Positions 46,157-62,814 of a DNA stretch of 64,000 nucleotides are shown here, one piece after another. The DNA is from an uncultured Spirochaetota bacterium (lineage in GTDB: Bacteria > Spirochaetota > Spirochaetia > SZUA-6 > CAVTHK01). Under the pieces are notes generated by a model. That model was not told the DNA's origin and ran no database searches. It saw only the letters and a list, made by a program, of their open reading frames with translations. How positions within the stretch are numbered: position 1 is the stretch's first letter; each line of letters opens with the position of its first letter. The stretch lies in the NCBI GenBank assembly GCA_963734495.1, contig CAVTHK010000011.1:512001-576000 (forward strand). The letters run 5' to 3'. The translations under genes were made by a program, and so were the position numbers.

Positions 46157-48313
46157 ATGGCCGAAGAGAGCCAGATATTCCACGAGAGCTGGTATCGTAT
46201 CGCGAACCAGCGCCTCTCCCTGCGCGCGAGCGTGCGCGTGAGGAGGCAGCTGTTCCGGGGGGCGCTCTGGTACGTGCTCTTCGACCCGTTTGGCGACCAG
46301 TTCTACCGGCTGCGCCCGGCGGCCTGGCGGTTCGTGGCGCGTCTCGCGGAGCGGCGTACGGTCGAGGAGGTGTGGAAGGAATCCATAGCCGTCGATCCGG
46401 ACAACGCTCCGGGACAGGAGGAGGTGATCCAGCTTCTCGCGCAGCTCTACCACGCCAACCTCCTGCACTACGAGCTCGCGGCGGACAGCGCGAAGCTCTT
46501 CGAGCGCTACCGGGAGACGAAGCAGAAGATCAGGCGCTCGGCCCTCGCCAACATCATGTTCTTCCGCCTTCCGCTGCTCGATCCCGACGCCGCTCTCCGA
46601 CGCCTCCTGCCGCTCGTGCGGCCTCTGATGGGGCCGTTGGGCGCGGCGATCTGGCTCGCGGTCGTCGGGTGGGGCGCCAAGACCGCGATCGAGAGCTTCG
46701 CCGCGCTCTCGGTGCGGAGCCAGGGGATTCTCGCCCTGCCCAACATCCCTCTGCTCTACCTCGGGATGTTCATCGTCAAGGCGCTCCACGAGCTCGGGCA
46801 CGCCTTTGCCGTGCGGCGGTACGGGGGCGAAGTCCACTCCATGGGGGTCATGTTCCTCATCTTCAACCCGCTGCCGTACGTGGACGCGACCGCGGCCTGG
46901 GCCTTCCGCAGCAAGGGACGGCGGGTGCTGGTGAGCGCGGCCGGCATGATCGTCGAGCTGTTCGTCGCCGCCCTCGCCGTGTTCGTCTGGGCCGGCACGA
47001 AGCCCGGGACGCTGAATGCGCTCGCCTACAACATGATCTTCGTGGCCTCGGTCTCGACGGTTCTCTTCAACATCAACCCTCTTCTCCGCTTCGACGGCTA
47101 CTACATCCTCTCGGACCTGCTCGACATCCCCAACCTCAGCACCCAGGCCGTGCAGCACCTCAGGCACCTCGTGGAGCGCTACGCTTTCGGGTGGAGGAAA
47201 TCGCGCAGCCCGGCCGGCAGCGTCAAGGAGGCCTTCTGGCTGACCGTCTTCGGCATCGCCAGCGGCCTGTACAGGCTCGTGGTCTTCGGATCGATACTCC
47301 TGTTCGTCGCCGACCGGCTCCTGGTGCTGGGAGTGATCATGGCGGGCATCTGCGCGGTCGCGTGGGTGGTCGTGCCGGCGCTGCGGCTCATCCGCTACCT
47401 CGCTTCGGATCCCCGCCTCGAGCGCACGCGGCTGCGCGCGGCGCTCGTGTGCCTCGCGGCGCTCGCCGGATGCGGGGCGCTGCTTTACCTGGTCCCCTTT
47501 CCCGCGAGCTTCCGCGCTCCCGGCGTGCTCGAGGCGACCCAGCACGCATTCGTGGTCAACCCCGTGGACGGCCGCGTCCAGGAGGTCCTCGTGCGGTCGG
47601 GCAATCGGGTGGAGCAGGGGACGCCGCTGGTGCGCCTGGGCAACGACGAGATCGAGCTCGCGATCCGGGAGGCGAACGCCGCCCTCGCCGCGGCCGCGGC
47701 GATGGAGCAGAAGGCCCTCAGCACGAGCCAGGCGGATCTCAAGGCCGTGCAGAGCCTGAGGGACAGCATCACGAAGAGGCTTGAAAAGCTTCGCGAGGAA
47801 CAGAGGGACCTAGTGGTGAAGGCCGACATCCCGGGCGTCTGGATTGCTCCCGACGTCGACGACCTCTCCGGGATGTGGCTGCGGCGCGGGACGCCGCTGG
47901 GAGAGCTGGTGGACGACCGCGGCTTTCGCTTCGCCTCGGTCGTCTCCGAGGACGACGTCTCCCAGGTGTTCTCCGGCAATGTGCTCGCGATCGAAGTGAG
48001 GCTGGCCGGGGAGGCGCACGTCGGCCTCCCGGCGCCCGGCTACGACGTGATCCCTATGGAGCAGAAACGGCTCCCCTCGAGGGCGCTGGGGTTCGGAGGA
48101 GGCGGGGAGATCGCGGTGGAGACGCGCGAGGCGAGCGGGGCCGTGGCGGTCGAGCCCTTCTACGAGGTGAGAGTGAACGTGCCCACCGACCGCGGCGTGG
48201 CGCTCGTGCACGGCCGCTCCGGAACGGTCCGCTTCCGGCTGGGCCCCGAGCCGCTGCTGCGGCAGTGGTACCGGCGCCTGCGCCAGCTCGTGCAGACGCG
48301 CTACCAGATGTAG
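46157..48313 (+). CDS. M50 (site-2) zinc metallopeptidase fused to an HlyD-like adaptor, with a PqqD-like N-terminal domain
   Basis: HELGH, AAGMIVE, NINPLLRFDGYY, C-terminal lipoyl-like VRSGNRVEQGTPL. Confidence 0.85.
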   Translation: MAEESQIFHESWYRIANQRLSLRASVRVRRQLFRGALWYVLFDPFGDQFYRLRPAAWRFVARLAERRTVEEVWKESIAVDPDNAPGQEEVIQLLAQLYHANLLHYELAADSAKLFERYRETKQKIRRSALANIMFFRLPLLDPDAALRRLLPLVRPLMGPLGAAIWLAVVGWGAKTAIESFAALSVRSQGILALPNIPLLYLGMFIVKALHELGHAFAVRRYGGEVHSMGVMFLIFNPLPYVDATAAWAFRSKGRRVLVSAAGMIVELFVAALAVFVWAGTKPGTLNALAYNMIFVASVSTVLFNINPLLRFDGYYILSDLLDIPNLSTQAVQHLRHLVERYAFGWRKSRSPAGSVKEAFWLTVFGIASGLYRLVVFGSILLFVADRLLVLGVIMAGICAVAWVVVPALRLIRYLASDPRLERTRLRAALVCLAALAGCGALLYLVPFPASFRAPGVLEATQHAFVVNPVDGRVQEVLVRSGNRVEQGTPLVRLGNDEIELAIREANAALAAAAAMEQKALSTSQADLKAVQSLRDSITKRLEKLREEQRDLVVKADIPGVWIAPDVDDLSGMWLRRGTPLGELVDDRGFRFASVVSEDDVSQVFSGNVLAIEVRLAGEAHVGLPAPGYDVIPMEQKRLPSRALGFGGGGEIAVETREASGAVAVEPFYEVRVNVPTDRGVALVHGRSGTVRFRLGPEPLLRQWYRRLRQLVQTRYQM

Positions 48314-48324
48314 AGGCCGGATCG

Positions 48325-50310
48325 ATGAGCTTTCTCACGAGCGACTACCGGCGGACCACGATCCGCAAGCCGCGTCCCCTGCTGTCGGGCCTGGACTCCC
48401 GCGTGCACGGGATCTCCGGATTCCTCGCCCACGGCCTCGGCGCTTCCGGGGAGCTCATGGCGAAGGCGGAGGAGACAGACGGCCTCGCTCCGGAGTTCAA
48501 GGATCTCGGGGAGAGCGCCCTCCGCAGGCAGGTGCTCGAGCTTCGCGAGGCCTTCCGCCGCCGCAAGGCGGGCTGCGAAGAGCTGGTTCCCAGGGCGCTC
48601 GCAGCCGTGCGGGAGGTGGCGGCCCGCACGGTGGGCCTGCGTCCGTACGTGGTGCAGCTCGCGGGGGCGCTCGCGCTGCACAAGGGACGGATCGCGGAGA
48701 TGGCCACGGGCGAGGGCAAGACCCTCACCGCCGCGCTGGCGGGCGTGCTCGCCGGATGGACCGGGCTGCCGTGTCACGTGATCACCGTCAACGACTACCT
48801 GGCCGATCGGGACGCCAGGTGGATGGGCCTCATCTACTCGTTCTGCGACGTCTCCGTGGGCTGCGTGACGGGCGAGATGGACCCGGAAGCGCGGCGCGAC
48901 GCCTATTCGCGGGACGTGACCTACGTCACGAACAAGGAGATCGTCGCCGACTTCCTGCGCGATCGCCTCTGGCTCGGCGCGCTGCAGAAGGTCGGTCGAC
49001 GCCAGATCACGGCGCTGCTCGGACACGACGACGAGATCGAGCGCGGGCTGGTGACGCGCGGCATCCACGCCGCGATCGTCGACGAGGCGGACAGCCTCCT
49101 CATCGACGAGGCGGTCACGCCGCTCATCATCTCGAAGGCCCTCCCCAACGAGGTGTTCACAGAGGCCTGCCGCGTGGCGGACGGCCTCGCGTCCGAGCTG
49201 CAGGCGGGCATCGACTACCGCGTCGACCAGAAGCGCAGGGACGTCGAGCTCGCGCCCGCGACCGCCGAGAAGCTTGCCGCCCGCATCCGGGGCTCCGGCG
49301 CGCGCTTCCGGGCGGTGGGCGGCCACCTGGAGCTGGTCCACCAGGCGCTCACGGCGAGGGAGTTCTTCCACAGGGACCAGCAGTACGTGCTGCAGGACGG
49401 CAAGGTCGTCATCGTCGACGAGTTCACCGGGCGCCAGATGCCGCACCGCACCTGGCGCGCCGGGCTCCACCAGTTCATCGAGGCGAAGGAGAGCCTGCCC
49501 ATGACGACGCCGACCGAGACGCTGGCGAGGCTCAGCTTCCAGCGCTTCTACCGCTTTTTCCACAAGCTCTCCGGCATGACCGGCACGGCGTCCGAAGCGG
49601 CCCAGGAGCTCTGGGACATCTACGAGCTGGCGGTCGTGACGATCCCCGAGAACAGGCCGTGCCGGAGGCGGGTCTATCCGGCGCTGGCCTTCGCGGACGA
49701 GGAATCGAAGGCGCGGGCGATCGTGCGGGAAATCGTGGCGCTGCACAGGGAGGGACGGCCGGTCCTGGTCGGCACACGCAGCGTCAAGGCAAGCGAGCAC
49801 CTCGCGTCCCTGCTGGCATCGACGGGTCTCTGGTTCCGGGTGCTCAACGCGGTCCGTCACGCCGAGGAGGCGGCCATCGTCGCCAGGGCGGGCGAGGAAG
49901 GCGCAATCACCGTAGCCACCAACATGGCGGGCCGGGGCACCGACATCCTGCTCGGCGGCGGCGTCGCCGCGCGCGGAGGCCTGCACGTGATCGCTTCGGA
50001 GGGCCACGAGTCGCAGCGCATCGACCGGCAATTGTTCGGCCGCTGCGCCCGCCAGGGCGACCCCGGAAGCGCGAGGCTCTTCGTCAGCCTGGAGGACGAG
50101 ATCATCCGTCGCCATGTCCCCGGGGCGCTGAGGCGGCTGATAGGACGGGAGGTCGCGGCCGGGATGCCGGGCGCCAGGGCGGCCGCGGTGGCGGCGCTGC
50201 GCGCCGGTCAGGCCGCGGCCGAGAGGCTCGCGTACCGCAGGCGCCGCTCCGTGCTGCGGACCGACACGTGGCTCGACGACTCGCTGTCGTTCGCGCCGGA
50301 CGTGTCGTGA
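48325..50310 (+). CDS. Secondary, C-terminally truncated SecA (SecA_DEAD protein, ~661 aa)
   Basis: EMATGEGKT, TVNDYLA.RD, VDEADS.LIDEA, GMTGTA, ATNMAGRGTDI, RIDRQLFGRCARQGDPGS. Ends shortly after SLED. Confidence 0.9.
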   Translation: MSFLTSDYRRTTIRKPRPLLSGLDSRVHGISGFLAHGLGASGELMAKAEETDGLAPEFKDLGESALRRQVLELREAFRRRKAGCEELVPRALAAVREVAARTVGLRPYVVQLAGALALHKGRIAEMATGEGKTLTAALAGVLAGWTGLPCHVITVNDYLADRDARWMGLIYSFCDVSVGCVTGEMDPEARRDAYSRDVTYVTNKEIVADFLRDRLWLGALQKVGRRQITALLGHDDEIERGLVTRGIHAAIVDEADSLLIDEAVTPLIISKALPNEVFTEACRVADGLASELQAGIDYRVDQKRRDVELAPATAEKLAARIRGSGARFRAVGGHLELVHQALTAREFFHRDQQYVLQDGKVVIVDEFTGRQMPHRTWRAGLHQFIEAKESLPMTTPTETLARLSFQRFYRFFHKLSGMTGTASEAAQELWDIYELAVVTIPENRPCRRRVYPALAFADEESKARAIVREIVALHREGRPVLVGTRSVKASEHLASLLASTGLWFRVLNAVRHAEEAAIVARAGEEGAITVATNMAGRGTDILLGGGVAARGGLHVIASEGHESQRIDRQLFGRCARQGDPGSARLFVSLEDEIIRRHVPGALRRLIGREVAAGMPGARAAAVAALRAGQAAAERLAYRRRRSVLRTDTWLDDSLSFAPDVS

Positions 50311-52142: not shown

Positions 52143-52179
52143 ACAGACGGCCGCGCGAGCGGCCGTCTGTGTTTGTTTG
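52143..52179 (+). terminator. Intrinsic terminator-like hairpin
   Basis: ACAGACGGCCGC-GCGA-GCGGCCGTCTGT then GTTTGTTTG. Confidence 0.7.
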
Positions 52180-52212
52180 TGCGCCGCGGGGGCGGATGCT
52201 ATAGTGGCATCC

Positions 52213-53287
52213 ATGGCGGCGCTCTCCCCGGCACAGCGCTGGGTCTCCCGGGTCGGCGAACGATGGGCCGTCCTCTTCCTGATCCTGCTCGTCGTGGTGT
52301 TCAGCCTGGTCGACTCGCACTTTTTCGCCTTCAGGAATTTCAACAACATCCTGTATTTCTCGACGACCTACCTCCTGCTGGCGGTCGGCGAGACGTTCGT
52401 GATCGTCTCCGGCGGGATCGACCTCTCGGTCGGCTTCGTCATGGGCTTCGTGGGCGTCGTCTCTGCGATGGTCATGCGCGACCTGCACGCGGCCGGGTGG
52501 CCTCAAGGCGCGAGCATGATGCTGGGCGCCGGCGTCGGGCTCGCGCTCGGCTTGATCCCCGGCCTGCGTCAACGGCGTGCTCGTGGCGCGGCTGCGCGTG
52601 CCGCCGTTCATCGCCACCCTCGGCACCTACGGGGTGGCCAACGGCGTGGCCCTCAACCTCTCCAAGGGCTTCCCCATCACGTTCCTTCCCCCGAGGGCCG
52701 GCGAGATCGGGAACAGCTTTCTCGCGTATGTCCTGCCCGGCCGGGAGTTCCGGTTCTTCCGCAGGCCCGAAGGGATCATGAATGACCAGCTCCGCAACCT
52801 GGTCGGGATCCTGCCGGGTACCGTGATCGTGACCGCCGCCGTCGTCGGGGTGTTCGCGTTCGTGCTCGGCCGCACGCGCTTCGGCCAGCACACCTACGCG
52901 ATCGGCGGCAGCCAGGACGCGGCCATCAGGGCCGGGATCGACGTGCCCGGACACCTGATGCGCATCTACCTGATCTCGTCGTTCCTTGCCTCGTTCGCCG
53001 GCGTTCTGTACGTGTTCCGCTCCGGCGTCGGGAACTTCACCACCATGAGCGCCTCGTACGAGCTGTTCGCGATCGCAGCCGTGGTCATCGGGGGCGCGAG
53101 CCTGTTCGGCGGCAAAGGCGGAATCGGCGGGACGACCGTCGGGATACTGATCCTGCTGACTCTGGAGAACGGGCTGACGATCACGGGGATCCCGGCCTTC
53201 TACCGCTACATCGCCACCGGCGTCATCCTGATCGCGGCCGTCGTCATCGACCAGGTCGCGCCTGAGCGCGAGGCCCGCGGTGAGTAG
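52213..53287 (+). CDS. RbsC-like ABC permease; frameshift near 52565
   Basis: GETFVIVSGGIDLSVG, VPPFIATLG, IAAVVIGGASLFGG. Confidence 0.85.
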
Positions 53288-55203: not shown

Positions 55204-55560
55204 CTACTCCTCGACGCTTTCGAGGCGGACTTCGATCCGGTCCCAGAGCTTCTGGAGGTTCTCGAGCGATCTGCGCTGCCACTGCAGCGCCCGGTTGCCG
55301 ATGAGGGTCACCGGGGCCCGGTCCATCTTCTTGACGGTCAGCAGGAATTCGCACAGCGTGCTGATCCCCGAGCTGTTGAGGAACTCCAGCCCCGTGAAAT
55401 CGAGCTCCAGGCGGGGCACGCCCGTGTCGTAGGCCGTCAGCAGGAAGTCGCGGATCCTGCCGTACTCCTGCCGGTGCCAGAGCCGAAGCGAGCCTTCGAA
55501 CGAGACTCTGCCCTGTTCATGGTCGAACGAGATCTCGTAGTCTTCGTCGCGGAGCCTCAC
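55204..55560 (-). CDS. STAS-like phospho-acceptor (slr1659 / SiaC-like)
   Basis: FEGSLRL...LDFTGLEFLNSSGI...WQRRSLENL. Confidence 0.75.
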   Translation of the reverse strand: MRLRDEDYEISFDHEQGRVSFEGSLRLWHRQEYGRIRDFLLTAYDTGVPRLELDFTGLEFLNSSGISTLCEFLLTVKKMDRAPVTLIGNRALQWQRRSLENLQKLWDRIEVRLESVEE

Positions 55561-56165
55561 CCGAGGGCCTCCTCCGGAATCAGTCTGACCTGGACGGAGA
55601 CGTTGCCCGTCCCGCGTCCGCCTCCCGGCATGAGCTTCACGCCCAGGCCGACGCGGAAATCATGGACAAGGGTCAGCAGTCCCAGCCGGGACGCGTCTTC
55701 GGGCCGCATCTCCCTCTGAATCGTCTGCAGGTACAGCGCCTCGATGTCCGGGGCGCCGGCCAGGTCCTTGGCCAGCTCCACGAATTGCGCGGCCTGTGTC
55801 TCCCGGGCGGAATTGTCGACCTGCACCACGACCTCGTCGCGCAGCCCGAAAAGGGCGATCTCTATGGCCGAACTCGCCGGCTGCGAGAACTTGACCGCGT
55901 TCTCCACCATCTCATTGAGGATCGTGGAGAGGCTGTTCCGCATGGACCTGGTGTACCGGTACTTGCGCGCGAAGAATCCGGCCACGAAATCCGCGGTCAA
56001 GCCGCAGAGCTGCCAGTGCTCGGCGAGATCCTGCGCGAGGACCGACAGGCGGATGATGCACCGCGACACGGAGGGGGTCTGCCGGTAGGTCCCGGCGACG
56101 GCCAGCGCCTGCGCGGTCGGCAGGCTCCCCCGGGGGCGACGCTTTCCCTTGCTTCGCGTATCCAT
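55557..56165 (-). CDS. GHKL-type Ser/Thr kinase (slr1658 / SiaB-like)
   Basis: LTADFVA.FF, STILNEMVENAVKF (N-box), SRLGLLTLVHDF. Confidence 0.75.
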   Translation of the reverse strand: MDTRSKGKRRPRGSLPTAQALAVAGTYRQTPSVSRCIIRLSVLAQDLAEHWQLCGLTADFVAGFFARKYRYTRSMRNSLSTILNEMVENAVKFSQPASSAIEIALFGLRDEVVVQVDNSARETQAAQFVELAKDLAGAPDIEALYLQTIQREMRPEDASRLGLLTLVHDFRVGLGVKLMPGGGRGTGNVSVQVRLIPEEALG

Positions 56166-56168
56166 GGG

Positions 56169-56831
56169 CTACTCGCGCGCCACCGCGTTGCGCCCGGCCC
56201 ACTTGGCCCGGTAGAGCGCCGTGTCCGCGCGCTGGGTGACCGACTCCACGTTGTCGCCGGGCCCGATTCCGGTCACCCCGAAGCTGCACGTGATGCGCCC
56301 GACCCTCTTGAACGGATGCTCTTCGACGGTCGCGCGGATCCGCTCCGCCAGCCTCTGGGTGTCGTCGCCGTCGGCGGCGGTGAGAATCACGAACTCCTCG
56401 CCGCCCCATCGGGCAAAGATGTCGTCCTGCCGGATGGCGCCGCGGACCACCATGATGAGCTCCACCAGGACGTCGTCGCCCGCCCGGTGGCCGTACTGGT
56501 CGTTGACCTGCTTGAACCGATCGATGTCGAACATGATGAGCGATGTTGCCGCCGGAGGACTGCTGCGCCGTTCGAGGTTGCGGTTGAGCGTGTCGTGGAA
56601 CTTGAGCCGGTTGAAGATCCCGGTCAGCGGGTCGGTGGTCGCCTGAACCGTGGCGACCCGCACCCTCCGGTCAAGCTCGTTCTCGATCAACGTGCCGTGC
56701 TCGACGGTGTTCTGGTAGACGAGCCGCAGCTCGTCGATCTCTTGCCTGAGACGGGCGATCTCCGCTTCCAGACGCTGCACTCGAGCCCGCTCCTGCTGCA
56801 GCTCCATCTGGACATTCTCGATATCCTGCAT
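56169..56831 (-). CDS. Coiled-coil + GGDEF diguanylate cyclase (SiaD-like architecture)
   Basis: DPLTGIFNR, DIDRFKQVNDQYGH, RQDD I-site, GGEEF. Confidence 0.92.
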   Translation of the reverse strand: MQDIENVQMELQQERARVQRLEAEIARLRQEIDELRLVYQNTVEHGTLIENELDRRVRVATVQATTDPLTGIFNRLKFHDTLNRNLERRSSPPAATSLIMFDIDRFKQVNDQYGHRAGDDVLVELIMVVRGAIRQDDIFARWGGEEFVILTAADGDDTQRLAERIRATVEEHPFKRVGRITCSFGVTGIGPGDNVESVTQRADTALYRAKWAGRNAVARE

Positions 56832-56900
56832 CTCCGTCCGGCAAGTCTCCCGCTACTGCGACCCGGCGAGAGGGCTCCAGCCGCCCGTATGGCCGCCGAT

Positions 56901-56928
56901 ATTATACAATATAGGCGCACGCGGTCAA
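56901..56928 (-). promoter_or_regulatory. Promoter TTGACC-N16-TATAAT for the GGDEF operon
   Basis: AT-rich patch in the divergent spacer. An overlapping plus-strand TACAAT lies at 56905-56910. Confidence 0.55.
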
Positions 56929-57079
56929 GGCGGAGGCCATTCCGGAGCATCCCGGGGCCGAAAGAGGGCATCCGGAGCGCTCCGTCGTCGTTGTGTCCGG
57001 GCGACTCGGGGGGCCGGCAGGCTTCCCACCGCCGCGACCGAACGCCGGCAGGCCGCAGGCGCCGGGTGGGGAAGGGTCG

Positions 57080-58564
57080 ATGGCCGAATCGAGCGGCGTG
57101 AAACAGAAAGTCCAGCCGCACGCAACGTTCGAGAGCACGGTCCGGGACCTCATCGGCCAGAATCGGCTGAGGTTCCCGTCCGTGCTCGAGCGGGTCTTCC
57201 GGGCGGACTACTACGAAAAATACGGCGCGATGACCCGGATTGCTCTGGGGATGGCGTTCGCCTTGTACTCGACCTTCGGGCTCCTCGACCGCTTCCTCGC
57301 TCCGGAGGTCTACCGCACCATCTGGCTGATCCGCTTCGGCATCGTCGATCCCATCATGGTCGTCGTCATGGTGCTCAGCTTCTTCCCGTTCTTCCGGTCG
57401 ATCGCGCAGGGGGTCCTGAGCGTGGCCACGCTGCTCGCGGGGCTCGGCATCGTGGCGATGATCATCGTCCTCGGCAACTCGCAGGCCTCCCTCTCGTACT
57501 ACGCCGGCCTGATCCTTGTCCTGATGTGGCTGTACACGTTCCCTCGCATCCGCTTCGGCTACGCCACCCTGGTCGGCTGGCTGATCGTGGTCGCGTACGA
57601 GCTCGTGGCCGTGGTGCATCAGAAGATGCTGGTCGACCCGCGGACGATCGGCATGTTCGTAAACAACAACTTCTTCTTCATCGGCGCCAGCGTCATGGGC
57701 ACGATCGTGAACTACCTGATGGAGGTCTCGGCCCGCCGGGAGTTCCTCCAGACCCAGCTCATCGCCGAGGAACAGGTCCTGCTGGAACGGGAGCGGAACG
57801 AGCTGCGGGACCGCAACACCATGATCAAGCGCGAGCTGGAAATGGCGAGGGCCGTCCAGCAGTCGCTGATACCGCGGGAGTTCCCGTCGGAGTACCTGCA
57901 CGCGATCTACCGCCCGATGGAGGAGGTGGGCGGCGACTACTTCGACATCTTCCGTCTCGACGGCGGACGCAAGATCGGGATCTTCGTGAGCGACGTCTCC
58001 GGCCACGGCGTTCCGGCCGCGCTGATCGCGGCGACGATCAAGGCCGTGCTCTCCGAATCCAGGCGGCTGCAGCAGTCGCCTGGCCGCCTGATGATGCACC
58101 TCAACGACGTGATTTCCCGCCAAACCGAGCACTACTTCGTCACCGCCTTCTACGGGATCTACGACATCGAGGGAAAATCATTCACATGGACCAACGCGGG
58201 ACATCCCCTGCCGCTCCTCTGCCATGGAGGCGCGGTCAGGGAGGTGGTCGCCCCCAAGACGCACGTGCCGCTGGGATTCCTCCCCAACTCGGAGCTGAGC
58301 GAAAAGGGCGAGACCTACGGCGAGTCCCGTATTCGCCTGACGGCCGGGAGCAGGCTCATTCTGTTCACCGACGGCCTCGTCGAAGCCACGCCCAAGGGCG
58401 ACCGGTCCACGCAGTTCGGAGACGTGATCGCCCGCACTGTGGTGCGTCTGGCCGCTCTGGCGCCCAAGGAGTTTCTGCAGGAGCTTCTGAAGGCCGTGAC
58501 CGAGTTCTGCGGCGGGGACGACTTCGCCGACGACATCTGCGCCATCTGCCTCGACATCAAGTGA
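57080..58564 (+). CDS. Membrane PP2C/SpoIIE phosphatase (about 6 TM)
   Basis: TM region with YYAGL and NNNFFF; ELEMARAVQ; VGGDYFD; DVSGHG; FTDGLVEA; DDI. Confidence 0.9.
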   Translation: MAESSGVKQKVQPHATFESTVRDLIGQNRLRFPSVLERVFRADYYEKYGAMTRIALGMAFALYSTFGLLDRFLAPEVYRTIWLIRFGIVDPIMVVVMVLSFFPFFRSIAQGVLSVATLLAGLGIVAMIIVLGNSQASLSYYAGLILVLMWLYTFPRIRFGYATLVGWLIVVAYELVAVVHQKMLVDPRTIGMFVNNNFFFIGASVMGTIVNYLMEVSARREFLQTQLIAEEQVLLERERNELRDRNTMIKRELEMARAVQQSLIPREFPSEYLHAIYRPMEEVGGDYFDIFRLDGGRKIGIFVSDVSGHGVPAALIAATIKAVLSESRRLQQSPGRLMMHLNDVISRQTEHYFVTAFYGIYDIEGKSFTWTNAGHPLPLLCHGGAVREVVAPKTHVPLGFLPNSELSEKGETYGESRIRLTAGSRLILFTDGLVEATPKGDRSTQFGDVIARTVVRLAALAPKEFLQELLKAVTEFCGGDDFADDICAICLDIK

Positions 58565-58684
58565 AAACGGCCTGCTTCCGGCCGTCGCCGTCGATTTCGT
58601 CCTCGTCTCTGAATCGGTCCTGTGGTAGGATGTGAAGGGTGACTGCGGGAACCCGCTGCGCAGGCTGCATAGGCAGGTGAAACA

Positions 58685-59179
58685 GTGACCAAGACATTCA
58701 CCCTGACGGTCGAGCCGCGATGGGAGGCCGTGGACGATGCCAGGCGCAAGAGCATCGGCTTCCTGGACGCGGGCCGCGTCTCCGCCGAGAGGATCCAGGC
58801 GCTGAGCATGGTCGTGTGCGAGCTCCTCGAAAACGGGCTCAAGTACGGCCACTTTCGATCGGATGAGGACAAGCTGACTCTGGAGATCACTCTCAGCCCG
58901 GAGGACGCCACGGTCGAGGTTCTGAATCCTTTCGACGAGGCGGCGCGCAAACATCTGCGGAGGCTGGACCAGACCGTGCAGTGGATCCGGGGATACCAGG
59001 ATCCTTTCCAGGCGTACATCGAGAAGCTCAAGGAAGTGGCCAAGAAGCCGCTGGACGACCAGGAGAGCGGGCTCGGTCTGGTCCGCATCGCTTACGAGGG
59101 CAGGGCCATTCTCGATTTCTTCGTCCCGGAGGACGGCATCCTGAACGTCTCGGCCGTCGCCAGGTTCGGGCAGGAGTAG
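58685..59179 (+). CDS. RsbW/SiaB-like GHKL kinase
   Basis: VVCELLENGLKYG, ESGLGLVRIAYE. Extended -10 TGGTAGGAT at 58623-58631. Confidence 0.75.
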   Translation: MTKTFTLTVEPRWEAVDDARRKSIGFLDAGRVSAERIQALSMVVCELLENGLKYGHFRSDEDKLTLEITLSPEDATVEVLNPFDEAARKHLRRLDQTVQWIRGYQDPFQAYIEKLKEVAKKPLDDQESGLGLVRIAYEGRAILDFFVPEDGILNVSAVARFGQE

Positions 59180-59183
59180 CACC

Positions 59184-59555
59184 GTGGAATCGACCATATC
59201 CCATACGAGCGAAGATCTGACCATCACGCTGTCGGAGAACGAGGCGGTCGTGCTCAAGTGGCTCGGGCGCAGCATGATGAGGAACCCGGGCGGGTTCGTC
59301 ACTCCGATCCTGCTGGACGGGCTCAACGCCTCCACGCGGGCTCAGAAGCGCCTCGTGCTGGACTTTACCGAGCTCGAGTACATGAATTCCTCGACGATCA
59401 CCCCCGTCATCAAGATCCTGGAGAGGGTCCGCCGGGGCAGGAACGAGCTCACGGTGGTCTACAATCGATCCCTGCAGTGGCAGGAGCTGTCCTTCTCGGC
59501 GCTCCGCATCTTCCAGACGGCCGATGGCCGGGTCGCCATCAAGGGAAACGGTTGA
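59184..59555 (+). CDS. STAS / SiaC-like phospho-acceptor
   Basis: LKWLGRS...LDFTELEYMNSSTI...WQELSF. Confidence 0.72.
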   Translation: MESTISHTSEDLTITLSENEAVVLKWLGRSMMRNPGGFVTPILLDGLNASTRAQKRLVLDFTELEYMNSSTITPVIKILERVRRGRNELTVVYNRSLQWQELSFSALRIFQTADGRVAIKGNG

Positions 59556-60962
59556 TGAGCCAGGAATGCCCGGGAATCCAGGCCTGGGTCGAGGAAGAAG
59601 GGCGGAGAGTCGCGATCGAGGCTCGCCACGCCTCGCGATACTCGCTCTGGGTGCGATTCCTAGGCAAGGGCGCCCGCAGAAACGGAAGCGAATTCTCCCG
59701 GCTGTTCCTCACGGTCCAGGGCGAGGAGTTCGAGTTCGGAAGGTGCCGCCTGGTGACTGAGCCCAACATCGAGGGCTACGCGGGGCGGCTCGTGCTGATC
59801 GAGGAATTCAACGACTTCGAGAGCCTGCTCTTCCGCAGGCGAGTCGACCGGCTGCAGAGCCCGTTCATGAACCTCCCGCTCCTGCTCGACCACAAGCGCC
59901 AGATCGCGCCCGAGTTCAGGGACTACGCTGCCGGTCTCACCTATGACCTCAACGTGTACAAGAGCCTGTTCGACGCGGTGGACGCGAAGCTCGACGGCGA
60001 GCCTGCCCACGTGCGGGCCGTCATCGAACGCGGCGTCATCGCGAACGAGGGCGCGCAGTTCCACGATTTCATGAGTGACCGGCATGAGGAGCTCAACCGC
60101 ATCGTCGCGGACTTCAGCGACGAAGACCACGAGCGTCACGGCTTCTACCTGAGGCGCCAGCTCTGGAGCATCATCATGTGCTCCCCTTTCATGGCCCGGA
60201 CCAATCTCAAGCCGCGGGGCTATGCCGGGGACTCCGAGATGATGACGATGATCTACAAGAACGAATACAGCGGCGACTCGACCTTCGCCAAGGTGCTGAA
60301 CAAGTTCCCCCTGGGCGCGCCCGCCGCGCAGGCGGTGCGCAACCGGCGCGGGATCGTCGCCGAGGCGCTGCGGAGCTTCCGCGCCGAGGTCGCCGCCGAG
60401 CGCCGCTCGAGGCCGCTGCGCGTGCTGTCCGTCGCCTGCGGCCCCGCCTGGGAGATCACCGACATCGTCCGAGCGGCCGCCGACGCACAGAACATCCACT
60501 TCACCATGTTCGATCAGGACCAGTACGCGCTCATGGAGGTCGCATCGCGGGTCGCCGAGACCGAGCGCCGCCTGGACGTCGCGCTTTCCGTGGACTACCT
60601 GAGGGAGTCCGTGCGCACGGTCCTGGTGACCCGCGAGCTCGAGGCGAAGTGGGGAAGGTACGACTTTGTCTACTCCATGGGGCTGTTCGACTACCTCACG
60701 CCCTCCCGTCGCGCGCGCGGTGCTGGTCCGGCTGTACCGGCTGCTCGAGCCAGACGGCCGGATGGTCATCGGCAATTTCCGCGTGGGCAGCCCGGGCCGG
60801 AACTTCATGGGATACTGGCTCGACTGGGTGATCTACTATCGCAGCGAAGAGGACTTCAAGGAGCTGGCGCAGGCGCTGCCCGGAGCGCAGTCGCGGATCG
60901 AGTTCGACAGCACGGGCGTCCAGATGCTCCTGCACGTGACCAAGCCGTCGGGTACCGGCTGA
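59555..60962 (+). CDS. Class I SAM methyltransferase, PhcB-like (~468 aa after correcting a frameshift near 60702)
   Basis: KPRGYAGDSEMM, PAAQAVRNR, VLSVACGPAWE, FDQD, YSMGLFDYL, then IGNF...LDW.IYYRS in the next frame. Confidence 0.8.
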
Positions 60963-60981
60963 CGGGCCCGCGAGGTTGCGA

Positions 60982-62384
60982 ATGAGCGAAAGGTTCTGGC
61001 CGGGACGACGGGCGGGCAGGGGCGGCGAAGGCGGGCCCACGGAGGCCGACGTCGCGTCGTTCACCTACGGCTCCGGCGACCTGGACCTCTATATCAACGC
61101 GATCGTCCACGATTCGCTGCGCACTCTCGCCATGCTCGGCATCGTCCTGGTGCCGATGTTCTTCCTGCTCGACTACTTCATGATGCCGCCGCAGCTCCTG
61201 GCCCGATTCGGGATCTACCGGCTGGCCTCCACGGTCATAGCCCTCGTCCAGTTCGTCATCGTCCGCAACACGCGGCCGGGACGCTGGTCCTACGTCCACG
61301 CCCACTTCATCTCCCTGCAGGTCGCCTTCAGCATCACGTTGATGACCATCGACCTGGGCGGGTTCGACTCGAGCTACTACGCGGGGCTCAACCTGGTGAT
61401 CATCGGGGTCAACCTCCTGCTGCCCTGGCGCGCGGTGCACTCCACGTCCAACTGCGCTGGCGATCATCGCCATGTACGTCGCCCTGAACCTGGTATCTCC
61501 CCACAAGCTACGCCGCGACCGCGCTGATGAACAACCTGTTCTTCCTCTGCAGCACCGCGGTCATCGCCATCAGCATCGGTCACGTCAGGCACCGGCTCAT
61601 CCGCAACGAGTTCCTGCTGCTGGTCGAGCTCAAGCGGGCCCGCGACGCGCTCTCCAGCGAGATGGATCTGGCCAAGCGCATCCAGACGGCGCTGCTGCCC
61701 CGCAGGGTGACCATGCCGGGCTACGAGGTCGCCGCGACCATGGTCCCCGCCAAGGAGGTCGGCGGCGACTACTACGACGTCATCGAGACCACGCGGGGGA
61801 CCGCGTGGGTCGCCATGGGCGATGTTTCGGGCCACGGAGTCGATTCGGGGCTCGTCATGATGATGGCGCAGACCAGCATCATCGCGGCGCTCGACGCCGA
61901 CAAGACCTCCGGCCCGTCTTCCGTGCTCGCGTCCGTCAACCGGGTGATCCGCGAGAACGTGGCGCGGCTGGGCTCGGAGCACTACATGACCGTCACCCTT
62001 TTGCGGCTCGACGGCGGGACGGTCACCGCGGCCGGCAAGCACCAGGACATCCTGGTCTACCGGGCGGCCGAGCAGCGCTCGGAGGTGATCCCCTCGGCCG
62101 GCACCTGGATCGGCATCGCCGACGACATCGCCGGATACCTGAGCGATTCGTCCTTCGATATGGGTCCGGGCGACGTGCTGCTGCTGTTCACCGACGGGAT
62201 CACCGAAGCGATGAACGACCAGCGCGAGATGTACGGCCAGGAGAGGCTCCAGCTGAGCCTGGATCGGTACGCGCACCTGCCGGTGGCGGGCATCGTGGAG
62301 CGGCTGATGGACGACGTGCGCGCGTTCCGCTCCGAGCAGCTGGATGACATGACTCTGGTGGTGATCAGGAGAATCGCGCAGTAG
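60982..62384 (+). CDS. Second membrane PP2C/SpoIIE phosphatase; two frameshifts near 61455 and 61520
   Basis: SYYAGLNLV, NNLFFL, EMDLAKRIQ, VGGDYYD, DVSGHG, FTDGITEA, DDMT. Confidence 0.85.
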
Positions 62385-62387
62385 AGA

Positions 62388-62413
62388 GGCGCCCGCCCTC
62401 GACGGCGGGCGCC
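62388..62413. terminator. Hairpin after the phosphatase gene
   Basis: GGCGCCCGCC-CTCGAC-GGCGGGCGCC. Confidence 0.5.
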
Positions 62414-62445
62414 GGCTCGGTTACATTGTCGGCGAAGGGGGGGCC

Positions 62446-62814
62446 GTGCCCGACCGGAATCTGGAGAGAAACAACCTCATCTATTATCTCAAGGTATCGG
62501 ACGTGTCGACGGGTCGCCGGCTTGGCTATCTGGCCGACATCAGCACGGCCGGGCTCATGCTCATGACGGACGACCCGCTGCCCGCGGACGTGGCTTACAG
62601 GCTCAGGATCGAGCCTCCCCACGCGCGCCAGGGAGAAGCGATCGCGGTCTCCGCCGTCACGAAATGGTCCGACAAGGACAAGCATTCCGCCTTCTACAAG
62701 ACGGGGTTCGAGCTCAAGGACACTTCGGCCGCCGAGCTCAAGTCGATCAAGCGCCTGATCAAGGAGTTCCTCTACGAGGAGCCCGAGGAGGACGCGGAGC
62801 TGCCCGCCGACTGA
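62446..62814 (+). CDS. Single-domain PilZ c-di-GMP receptor
   Basis: RNLER (RxxxR) and DISTAG (DxSxxG). Confidence 0.85.
   Translation: MPDRNLERNNLIYYLKVSDVSTGRRLGYLADISTAGLMLMTDDPLPADVAYRLRIEPPHARQGEAIAVSAVTKWSDKDKHSAFYKTGFELKDTSAAELKSIKRLIKEFLYEEPEEDAELPAD

Follow-up and report, generated by a model that had tools for sequence, protein, structure and literature searches.

Two described systems are among the closest relatives of the one treated here. In Ralstonia and Cupriavidus, phcBSRQ encodes the methyltransferase PhcB and the sensor kinase PhcS, with 3-hydroxymyristic and 3-hydroxypalmitic acid methyl esters (3-OH MAME/PAME) as signals; the accessible parts of the literature know quorum sensing by methyl esters solely from Ralstonia and its close kin, where a histidine kinase reads the signal, and the accessible part of a 2026 review places phc signalling only in the Ralstonia complex. 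In the SiaABCD system of Pseudomonas aeruginosa, the stalk of SiaD binds SiaC (PMC8457831), whose phosphorylation site has the motif LLYLN-T68-SS (10.1101/674879). Investigating a 64,000-nt stretch of the genome of an uncultured Spirochaetota bacterium (GCA_963734495.1, contig CAVTHK010000011.1, positions 512,001 to 576,000; this whole stretch is called the window, and all coordinates are positions in it), we analysed a block of nine genes (55204..62814) with features of both systems. It contains a PhcB-family methyltransferase, which is not a PhcB orthologue, within a four-gene core in the order kinase, STAS protein, methyltransferase and membrane PP2C, to which the window adds a second receptor-phosphatase, a PilZ gene and a unit with a stalked diguanylate cyclase. 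No description of the four-gene unit was found in a literature search from which subscription papers and supplements were largely absent, and its novelty would lie in the combination of two known kinds, a Phc-type input and a Sia-type relay. We favour, by a modest degree of confidence, the reading that the enzyme makes a lipid methyl ester, that the PhcS-type membrane domain of the PP2C senses it, and that phosphatase and kinase set the phosphorylation of the STAS protein, with outputs specific to each lineage.

The core is strongly conserved. There were 249 loci in named genomes and 377 in metagenomes; around the best 80 of each set we labelled the genes by means of profiles that window sequences had seeded. 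Since these loci were chosen for their likeness to the enzyme and some of them are kin, the counts express conservation rather than independent trials. A kinase and a STAS gene lie upstream of the enzyme in 74 of the 78 named-genome loci with enough flank, a membrane PP2C follows it in 70/73, and the complete core is found in 68/72 named-genome and 33/35 metagenome loci (exceptions: L033, L052, L064, L089). Because all four genes are present in 68 of 72 loci, the arrangement is far beyond chance, and it is near-invariant in at least six phyla, the hosts belonging to Thermodesulfobacteriota, Spirochaetota (with Leptospira), Calditrichota, Fidelibacterota/Marinisomatota, Myxococcota and Gammaproteobacteria. 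The initial annotation, made from the window alone, had proposed surveying such neighbourhoods for PP2C, kinase, STAS and GGDEF genes; the association of the enzyme with the first three is borne out, GGDEF genes being accessory. Of 401 genomes sampled evenly from the host phylum, 58 hold a member of the enzyme family and 33 one of the window clade, and the four genes stand together in 30/30 of the best loci. The distribution is patchy all the same: a full-length orthologue was found in 2/40 close relatives, one of them lacking the core PP2C, and a genome of the same genus gave no match. The core is intact in cultured bacteria that are not pathogens (L057, L061, L079, L093). Some genomes carry two four-gene cores about 13-14 kb apart (L228-L229, L232), and in two loci (L033:9662-11056, L124:9659-11053) the N-terminus of the kinase is fused in frame to an enzyme devoid of its first domain, with the STAS gene absent, as though an internal stretch of the core had been lost.

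The methyltransferase can be placed at the level of the family. Among 8000 scored candidates 1400 hits were obtained, the best 120 at 46-95% identity, and many of these bear the automatic JGI label 3-hydroxypalmitic acid methyl ester biosynthesis protein. As a reference we used a Paraburkholderia plasmid locus (enzyme, kinase, two regulators), which led to Cupriavidus proteins, one of them named PhcB; the Cupriavidus proteins of this name stood in for Ralstonia PhcB in the comparisons. An intact twin of the window enzyme shares 30% identity over 291 aa (E 2e-34) with the C. taiwanensis PhcB-cluster protein P0290, and profile-profile alignment of the window clade with PhcB gave a probability of 100 across 423 columns. 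From residue 180 onward, both clades share the same residue at 42 positions with a conservation of at least 90%, among them KPxGYxGD, AxR.R, GLFDYL, N407, W424 and R429. The window enzyme therefore has the characters of the PhcB family in the broad sense, namely a class I S-adenosylmethionine (SAM) methyltransferase with KPxGYxGD and GLFDYL, a helical substrate domain and a length of about 465 aa. Neither Pfam nor NCBIfam holds a PhcB model matching the window enzyme or Cupriavidus PhcB, Pfam returning generic methyltransferase domains only. Likewise, sequence searches of solved structures with the methyltransferase gave nothing significant, so that the link to the structure 3OCJ is a structural one only: with the enzyme model (predicted local distance difference test, pLDDT, 93), 3OCJ is the best of 48,161 chains (Z 20.7, root-mean-square deviation (rmsd) 3.0, 250 aligned; next Z 18.5) and the top match by both Foldseek and VIA-align. 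It is a 97% identical orthologue of the Bordetella fatty-acid methyltransferase FmtB, and its cavity holds what is probably palmitate (PMC5426589). Family and fold suggest that the window enzyme most likely methylates a long acyl carboxylate; because it does not group within the PhcB clade of Burkholderiales, a 3-hydroxy fatty acid methyl ester is no more than a presumed product.

Relatives of this enzyme occur in several other contexts. A sister subfamily of about 487 aa (L218:370-3667 (-), L219, L220) has an N-terminal PilZ domain above the Pfam cut-off and is followed by a sensor-SpoIIE-TPR protein with a membrane domain close to that of the core PP2C, the PilZ-enzyme pair of L218 being divergent from a full core. 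The N-terminal domain of the window enzyme might itself be a degenerate PilZ barrel: it reached an Atlas score of 0.87 to a cluster with 27% PilZ, profile comparisons with the PilZ barrel being not significant. Two PhcB-family enzymes have an N-terminal cNMP-binding domain (L221:6678-8249, L227:6459-7952), the former followed by a hybrid kinase with a six-helix sensor. Matches to the catalytic part (about 30% identity) also lie inside annotated type I polyketide synthase genes on Enterobacter plasmids (H4, H5). As a clustering oddity, a 447-aa protein named PhcS (P0263) sits in a 90% cluster of Janthinobacterium PhcB-like enzymes.

The second link to Phc signalling is the membrane domain of the PP2Cs. 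A profile built from the N-terminal membrane region of 65 core PP2Cs, without any kinase, scored 31.2 bits with a PhcS-like kinase of the Paraburkholderia locus, 23.5 with a protein named PhcS and 24.8 with PP2C#1, 200 shuffles reaching at most 7.8. Comparison by hhalign of the PP2C sensor with PhcS N-termini (15 rows) gave 94% (E 1.5e-7, 157 columns), or 95.7% after one frameshifted row had been dropped, with a reversed control at 0.07%. The membrane domain of PP2C#2 is homologous to the PhcS sensor, and PP2C#1 belongs to the same sensor family. In loci of the PhcB clade (251 genomes, one family) a sensor histidine kinase directly follows the enzyme in 13 of 14, the 14th lying at a contig end, and 10 of these 13 kinases are detected by the PP2C-only profile. 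Short members of the enzyme family in the host's order are mostly also followed directly by sensor-type kinases, and other enzyme subfamilies adjoin seven-helix kinases instead. In the model of an intact PP2C#2 orthologue (pLDDT 92), six helices are followed by a long coiled coil and then by the PP2C part; the catalytic domain finds its best structural match in SiaA (6K4E, Z 26.7), and the six-helix bundle aligns with ImcA (Z 16.1, rmsd 2.6, 188 aligned) and adenylyl cyclase 9 (Z 15.0, rmsd 3.0, 190 aligned). Weak AC_N matches occur in sensor paralogues, and Atlas look-alikes of the domain belong mostly to unnamed clusters, with MASE8 in 11% of one. Membrane anchors of the adenylyl cyclase type are reported to act as fatty-acid receptors (PMC12505454; PMC11606603), and cyclase anchors to be exchangeable with the CqsS receptor (PMC4821796).

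Further sensors of the same family gather at the core. With a broad profile grown on these loci, a second one was found within 3.5 kb of the core in 27/50 loci and at 3.5-7 kb in 0/50. Sixteen of 26 extra sensor proteins beside the core are histidine kinases and six are Hpt-ATPase kinases; the remaining four are a class III cyclase, an HD domain, a GGDEF-EAL and a PP2C protein. The PP2C#1 subtype (membrane domain 148-188 bits) flanks the core in 12 other loci. In the host genome (G000, 83% complete) the sensor profile finds the two PP2Cs and no other membrane protein. The claim that the signal is read by phosphatases rather than by a histidine kinase consequently fits the host, and does not extend to the family, in which 22 of the 26 extra sensors are of kinase type. 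In L028:14063-16129, L126, L180 and L229:4369-6414, a nearly core-like membrane domain (223-289 bits) is fused to Hpt and HATPase domains, possibly a recent output swap on the same sensor.

The core further unites a PP2C, a GHKL kinase and a STAS protein with an N-T/S-S phosphorylation site in one unit. Counted across 100 orthologue sets, the N-box pattern of the core kinase (KIN_B) is present in 97/100, and both serines of the core STAS protein (STAS_B) are invariant (100/100). Its site LEYMNSST, as well as LEFLNSSG of the second STAS protein of the window (STAS_A), matches the SiaC motif. The likeness of the switch parts to SiaA and SiaC, which the initial annotation had suggested, is supported, with SiaA as the best fold match of the phosphatase domain. 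The Sia family cut-offs were not reached (SiaA 37-59 of 700 bits, SiaC 19.5 of 24.5, SiaD 151 of 290), and because of these scores we regard the core proteins as SiaABC-like but not as members; by analogy, they would work like SiaABC. The second kinase of the window, KIN_A, and STAS_A pass the cut-offs of NF047703 and NF047705, which KIN_B and STAS_B miss (42 and 33 bits). The core is devoid of any output gene.

Cyclic di-GMP (c-di-GMP) is a candidate output in the host, although this arm is less well supported than the enzyme/receptor side. A GGDEF gene lies within 5 kb of the core in 26/59 loci, with an enrichment of 20/50 loci within 3.5 kb vs 2/50 at 3.5-7 kb; a PAS-GGDEF-EAL gene stands directly upstream on the same strand in 16/70 loci, and a PilZ gene after the core in 13/73. 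The PilZ protein of the window has both c-di-GMP-binding motifs, exceeds the PF07238 cut-off and thereby has the characters of a PilZ receptor. The cyclase of the window carries a stalk motif, ..NT(V/I)EH(G/S)T.(I/L)E.EL, that recurs in 13 proteins next to slr1658/slr1659 pairs within the host's order; to judge from the sequence that is visible and from two family scans, these appear to be class III cyclases. With the consensus (D/E)L.I.(Y/N)(E/Q)NT(V/I)EH(G/S)T..E.EL (window 56646-56831 (-); L022:7683-8876, L261-L263, L266, L267, L284-L290), the stalk precedes a GGDEF or class III cyclase-like domain, always beside slr1658/slr1659-type pairs, and is a candidate portable STAS docking stalk. 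Because it resembles the SiaC-binding stalk of SiaD, it is a fair inference that the window cyclase would dock a STAS protein there. The window thus joins two modules. Since the divergent cyclase-kinase-STAS unit has no phosphatase of its own and faces PP2C#1 as its divergent neighbour, it is plausible that their wiring is shared. Beside one group of these stalks a further methyltransferase occurs: an slr1659-like STAS domain is fused to a UbiE-like methyltransferase (L284:5669-6838 and the corresponding genes of L285-L290) in a six-gene unit that also holds two slr1658-like kinases, a 764-aa PP2C, a STAS protein and a stalked cyclase, and that would represent a second, unrelated coupling of a partner switch with a methyltransferase.

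The nine genes are listed in Table 1, in the positions and on the strands that the initial annotation had given them. The stop codon of STAS_B (TGA, 59553-59555) overlaps the start of the methyltransferase (ATG, 59555-59557), as noted there, and the motifs KPRGYAGDSEMM and PAAQAVRNR are both seen in the translation, which comes to the expected 468 aa once an X is placed at a single +1 break near 60701-60704. PP2C#2 contains two +1 shifts that had gone unreported, one near 61453 and the other in the stretch of about 61490-61510. Both PP2Cs have the metal motifs DVSGHG, FTDG and a terminal DD.

Table 1. Genes of the analysed block, with coordinates in the window
Gene product	Position	Strand	Evidence and features
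STAS_A, slr1659-superfamily STAS protein, 118 aa	55204..55560	-	NF047705 109.3 bits (cut-off 100); putative phospho-acceptor Ser63 (LEFLNSSG)
KIN_A, slr1658-superfamily GHKL Ser/Thr kinase-like protein, 202 aa	55557..56165	-	NF047703 120.8 bits (cut-off 100); weak HATPase_c
Diguanylate cyclase, 220 aa, N-terminal coiled-coil stalk and GGEEF domain	56169..56831	-	PF00990 E 4e-40; RxxD I-site; SiaD-like architecture
PP2C#1, six-helix PhcS/adenylyl-cyclase-type membrane domain and SpoIIE phosphatase, 494 aa	57080..58564	+	PF07228 E 6e-42
KIN_B, core GHKL (RsbW/SiaB-like) kinase, 164 aa	58685..59179	+	HATPase_c_2 and DUF6272 matches below cut-off
STAS_B, core SiaC-like STAS protein, 123 aa	59184..59555	+	PF09345 SiaC E 8e-4, below cut-off; putative phospho-acceptor Ser69 (LEYMNSST)
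PhcB-family class I SAM methyltransferase, 468 aa	59555..60962	+	N-terminal beta domain (~1-95), helical substrate domain, Rossmann domain; one +1 break
PP2C#2, core receptor-phosphatase with PhcS-type six-helix domain, coiled coil and SiaA-type PP2C	60982..62384	+	two +1 breaks
Single-domain PilZ protein, 122 aa, accessory	62446..62814	+	PF07238 27.7 bits (cut-off 22.5); RxxxR and DxSxxG

Upstream of the block, a sugar ABC permease gene (52173-53287 (+)) is split by a frameshift near 52570, akin to the breaks in the signalling genes. Still further upstream (46157-50310 (+)), and with labels read off the translations of open reading frames, lie genes for a 718-aa membrane protein with an HlyD-like region, a SecA-like ATPase and a 206-aa putative outer-membrane protein.

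From these parts the following chain can be proposed. The methyltransferase would transfer a methyl group from SAM to the carboxyl group of an acyl substrate with a long, possibly hydroxylated chain, as family and fold suggest, and thereby yield a membrane-permeant methyl ester that might pass between cells. The six-helix domain of PP2C#2 would bind the ester within the membrane and tune, in one direction or the other, the SiaA-type phosphatase via the coiled coil; phosphatase and GHKL kinase would then together set the phosphorylation of the serine of the STAS protein, a partner switch modelled on SiaABC. The presumed target of the STAS protein, and hence the output, would lie outside the core and differ by lineage. 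In the host, PP2C#1, the divergent kinase-STAS pair with its stalked cyclase and the PilZ protein could route the signal to c-di-GMP in the manner of SiaC with SiaD, which we consider the most likely output there, with about an even chance provided that the rest of the chain holds. Taken together, the homologies and gene order make a cognate lipid enzyme/receptor pair feeding a SiaABC-like serine partner switch likely.

Several observations, besides the selection of loci by similarity, weigh against this proposal. A quick tree was built from 81 catalytic regions, with 35 core loci picked by hand from about 190, with long branches and without an outgroup root or clade test; in it the window enzyme falls in a clade of 37 (Shimodaira-Hasegawa-like approximate likelihood ratio test, SH-aLRT, 98), apart from the 19-member Burkholderiales PhcB clade (100); the deeper branching order lacks resolution, and the enzymes of the host-phylum sample cluster with named Leptospira sequences, in line with a spirochaete as the probable host. 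The phylogenetic check that had been recommended thus removes the window enzyme from the PhcB orthologues and leaves the PhcB assignment standing for the broad family. Since the clades are separate and 35 positions are conserved within each yet different between them, the substrate may differ from that of PhcB. The N-terminal domains (about 100 residues), which are aligned in the full-length comparison, reach a profile probability of only 0.2-0.5% when compared alone. The sensor family is broad: at 23-37 bits, other paralogues in the core loci match the profile as well as PhcS does; a match specific to PhcS was accordingly rejected in favour of homology at family level. Ligand binding by the membrane domain of PhcS is itself asserted, not demonstrated, in the accessible part of the source (PMC7567580). 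With regard to the host, two core genes are frameshifted in the assembly (rough background 2/124 hits to ABC ATPases), the divergent second kinase/STAS unit is found in 0/59 other core loci, from which the stalk motif is likewise absent, and a PhcB-like gene is found in none of the slr1658/slr1659 units fetched from 9 relatives. Finally, FmtB as the closest solved relative methylates free fatty acids, and the accessible part of its description reports no signalling role (PMC5426589). This would suit an enzyme acting within the cell: the six-helix domain could read a free fatty acid or another membrane lipid, as the related anchor of Rv1625c responds to free C18:1 acids (PMC12505454), and the methyltransferase could remove or tune that ligand as a sink or feedback enzyme, possibly even as the target of the partner switch, without any cell-to-cell signal. 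The core holds no other output gene, and enzymes of this kind may often be regulated outputs, because sister enzymes are fused to PilZ or cNMP-binding domains and an unrelated methyltransferase elsewhere to a STAS domain. However, the order of enzyme and sensor and the family of the sensor are the same as in phcB-phcS, whose ester is a diffusible signal, and the additional sensors with different outputs that cluster at the enzyme are what would be expected of several receptors for one made signal, so that we consider such lipid-state sensing rather unlikely, at roughly one chance in four. Far less probable is a CheR-like role, with the enzyme methylating protein to adapt the receptor and the PilZ protein serving as c-di-GMP adaptor. 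MapZ is a c-di-GMP adaptor of this type for CheR1; weak sequence matches to CheR structures exist (E 0.014 and 1.2-1.5), and in three loci (L021, L052, L175) a PilZ gene directly follows the enzyme while the core PP2C is absent. The relation to PhcB is much stronger, though, and CheR is not among the 50 best structural matches, which are headed by the fatty-acid methyltransferase orthologue.

Two further alternatives concern the window more than the family. The divergent GGDEF-kinase-STAS unit might be a separate slr1658/slr1659-type switch that is merely adjacent, and its restriction to the window among core loci is what this would predict; the slr1658/slr1659 units of the 9 relatives have a PP2C or PP2C fragments of their own, and the host genome holds another such unit elsewhere, also with its own phosphatase. 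On the other hand, the unit of the window has none and faces PP2C#1, other GGDEF(-EAL) genes are enriched by the core, in part directly upstream on the same strand, and the PilZ gene lies downstream of the core on the same strand. A merely adjacent switch is hence a serious possibility, to which we give somewhat less than an even chance and which concerns nothing but the output arm. We rejected the view that the whole 7.6-kb block is a single conserved circuit, given the distribution of the divergent unit, the stalk motif and the PhcB-like gene. Of the conversion of the signal into c-di-GMP claimed by the initial annotation, the enrichment of GGDEF genes near the core speaks in its favour, and the accessory nature of GGDEF, PilZ and divergent unit against it. 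It is also conceivable, albeit improbable, that the core of the window is a decaying copy, with three real +1 insertions and with an inactive enzyme and core receptor, which would leave the proposal for the family untouched. Three breaks within about 0.8 kb exceed the rough background of 2/124 hits to ABC ATPases and 1/8 to permeases, and the same-genus genome (G001) lacks any match to the methyltransferase; yet each break is a single-base insertion and in-frame stops are absent. Because an intact 468-aa protein (P0004), 95% identical to the window enzyme, exists, and an unrelated permease gene 8 kb upstream is similarly broken, as expected of long-read indel errors, assembly indels are likelier than gene decay. 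In the sequencing runs at most 20% of the sequence words are present, and the contigs are short and mixed.

At its widest, and with more doubt than confidence on our side, the locus might represent a widespread and undescribed class of quorum sensing, in which the product of a PhcB-family enzyme would be a new lipid methyl ester, read by a PhcS-type receptor-phosphatase and relayed by a STAS partner switch without a His-Asp phosphorelay, while further receptors fan out to kinases, cyclases and phosphodiesterases; in the host, two receptor-phosphatases would drive two switches, one of them docking on the cyclase stalk to supply c-di-GMP for PilZ. If this is true, Leptospira, Desulfobacterales, Calditrichota, Marinisomatota, myxobacteria and halophilic Gammaproteobacteria would have a common chemical language, the methyl-ester signals would extend to at least six phyla via a Ser/Thr partner switch, and groups with few known autoinducer systems would gain a candidate. 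An orphan family, the six-helix membrane domains akin to adenylyl cyclase anchors, would in that case acquire a ligand, and SiaABC-like switches, for which the accessible literature does not settle the direct signals, would acquire an input. As the unit is small and intact in cultured bacteria, it is directly testable.

The locus can be set beside five described groups. With phcBSRQ it shares a PhcB-family enzyme of equal length and catalytic motifs, followed by a protein with a homologous six-helix membrane domain; it differs in the separate enzyme clade at about 30% identity, in a receptor output that is a PP2C and not a histidine kinase, in the kinase and STAS genes upstream, and in the absence of PhcR/PhcQ receivers from the core and from the nine window genes. 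With SiaABCD it has in common a membrane PP2C, a GHKL kinase, a STAS protein with an N-S/T-S site and, in the window, a small stalked GGDEF enzyme; unlike in SiaABCD, the parts fall below the SiaA/SiaC/SiaD cut-offs, the sensor is of PhcS type, a methyltransferase is embedded, and most loci lack the cyclase, which is an accessory part. The slr1658/slr1659 regulators of Synechocystis (NF047703, NF047705) include KIN_A and STAS_A by both cut-offs, whereas KIN_B and STAS_B are distant relatives, and the window pair comes with a stalked diguanylate cyclase and a PhcS-type PP2C. FmtB (BP2936)/BPP1064 (PDB 3OCJ) matches in the helical and Rossmann domains over 250 residues; identity is about 20%, with no match at the level of sequence, and FmtB, for which the accessible description reports no role in signalling, lacks the N-terminal beta domain. 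The hexahelical receptors (class III adenylyl cyclases, CqsS/LqsS, ImcA), lastly, have the same six-helix fold, which in the window is fused to a PP2C; the link of CqsS to the cyclase anchors is taken from PMC4821796.

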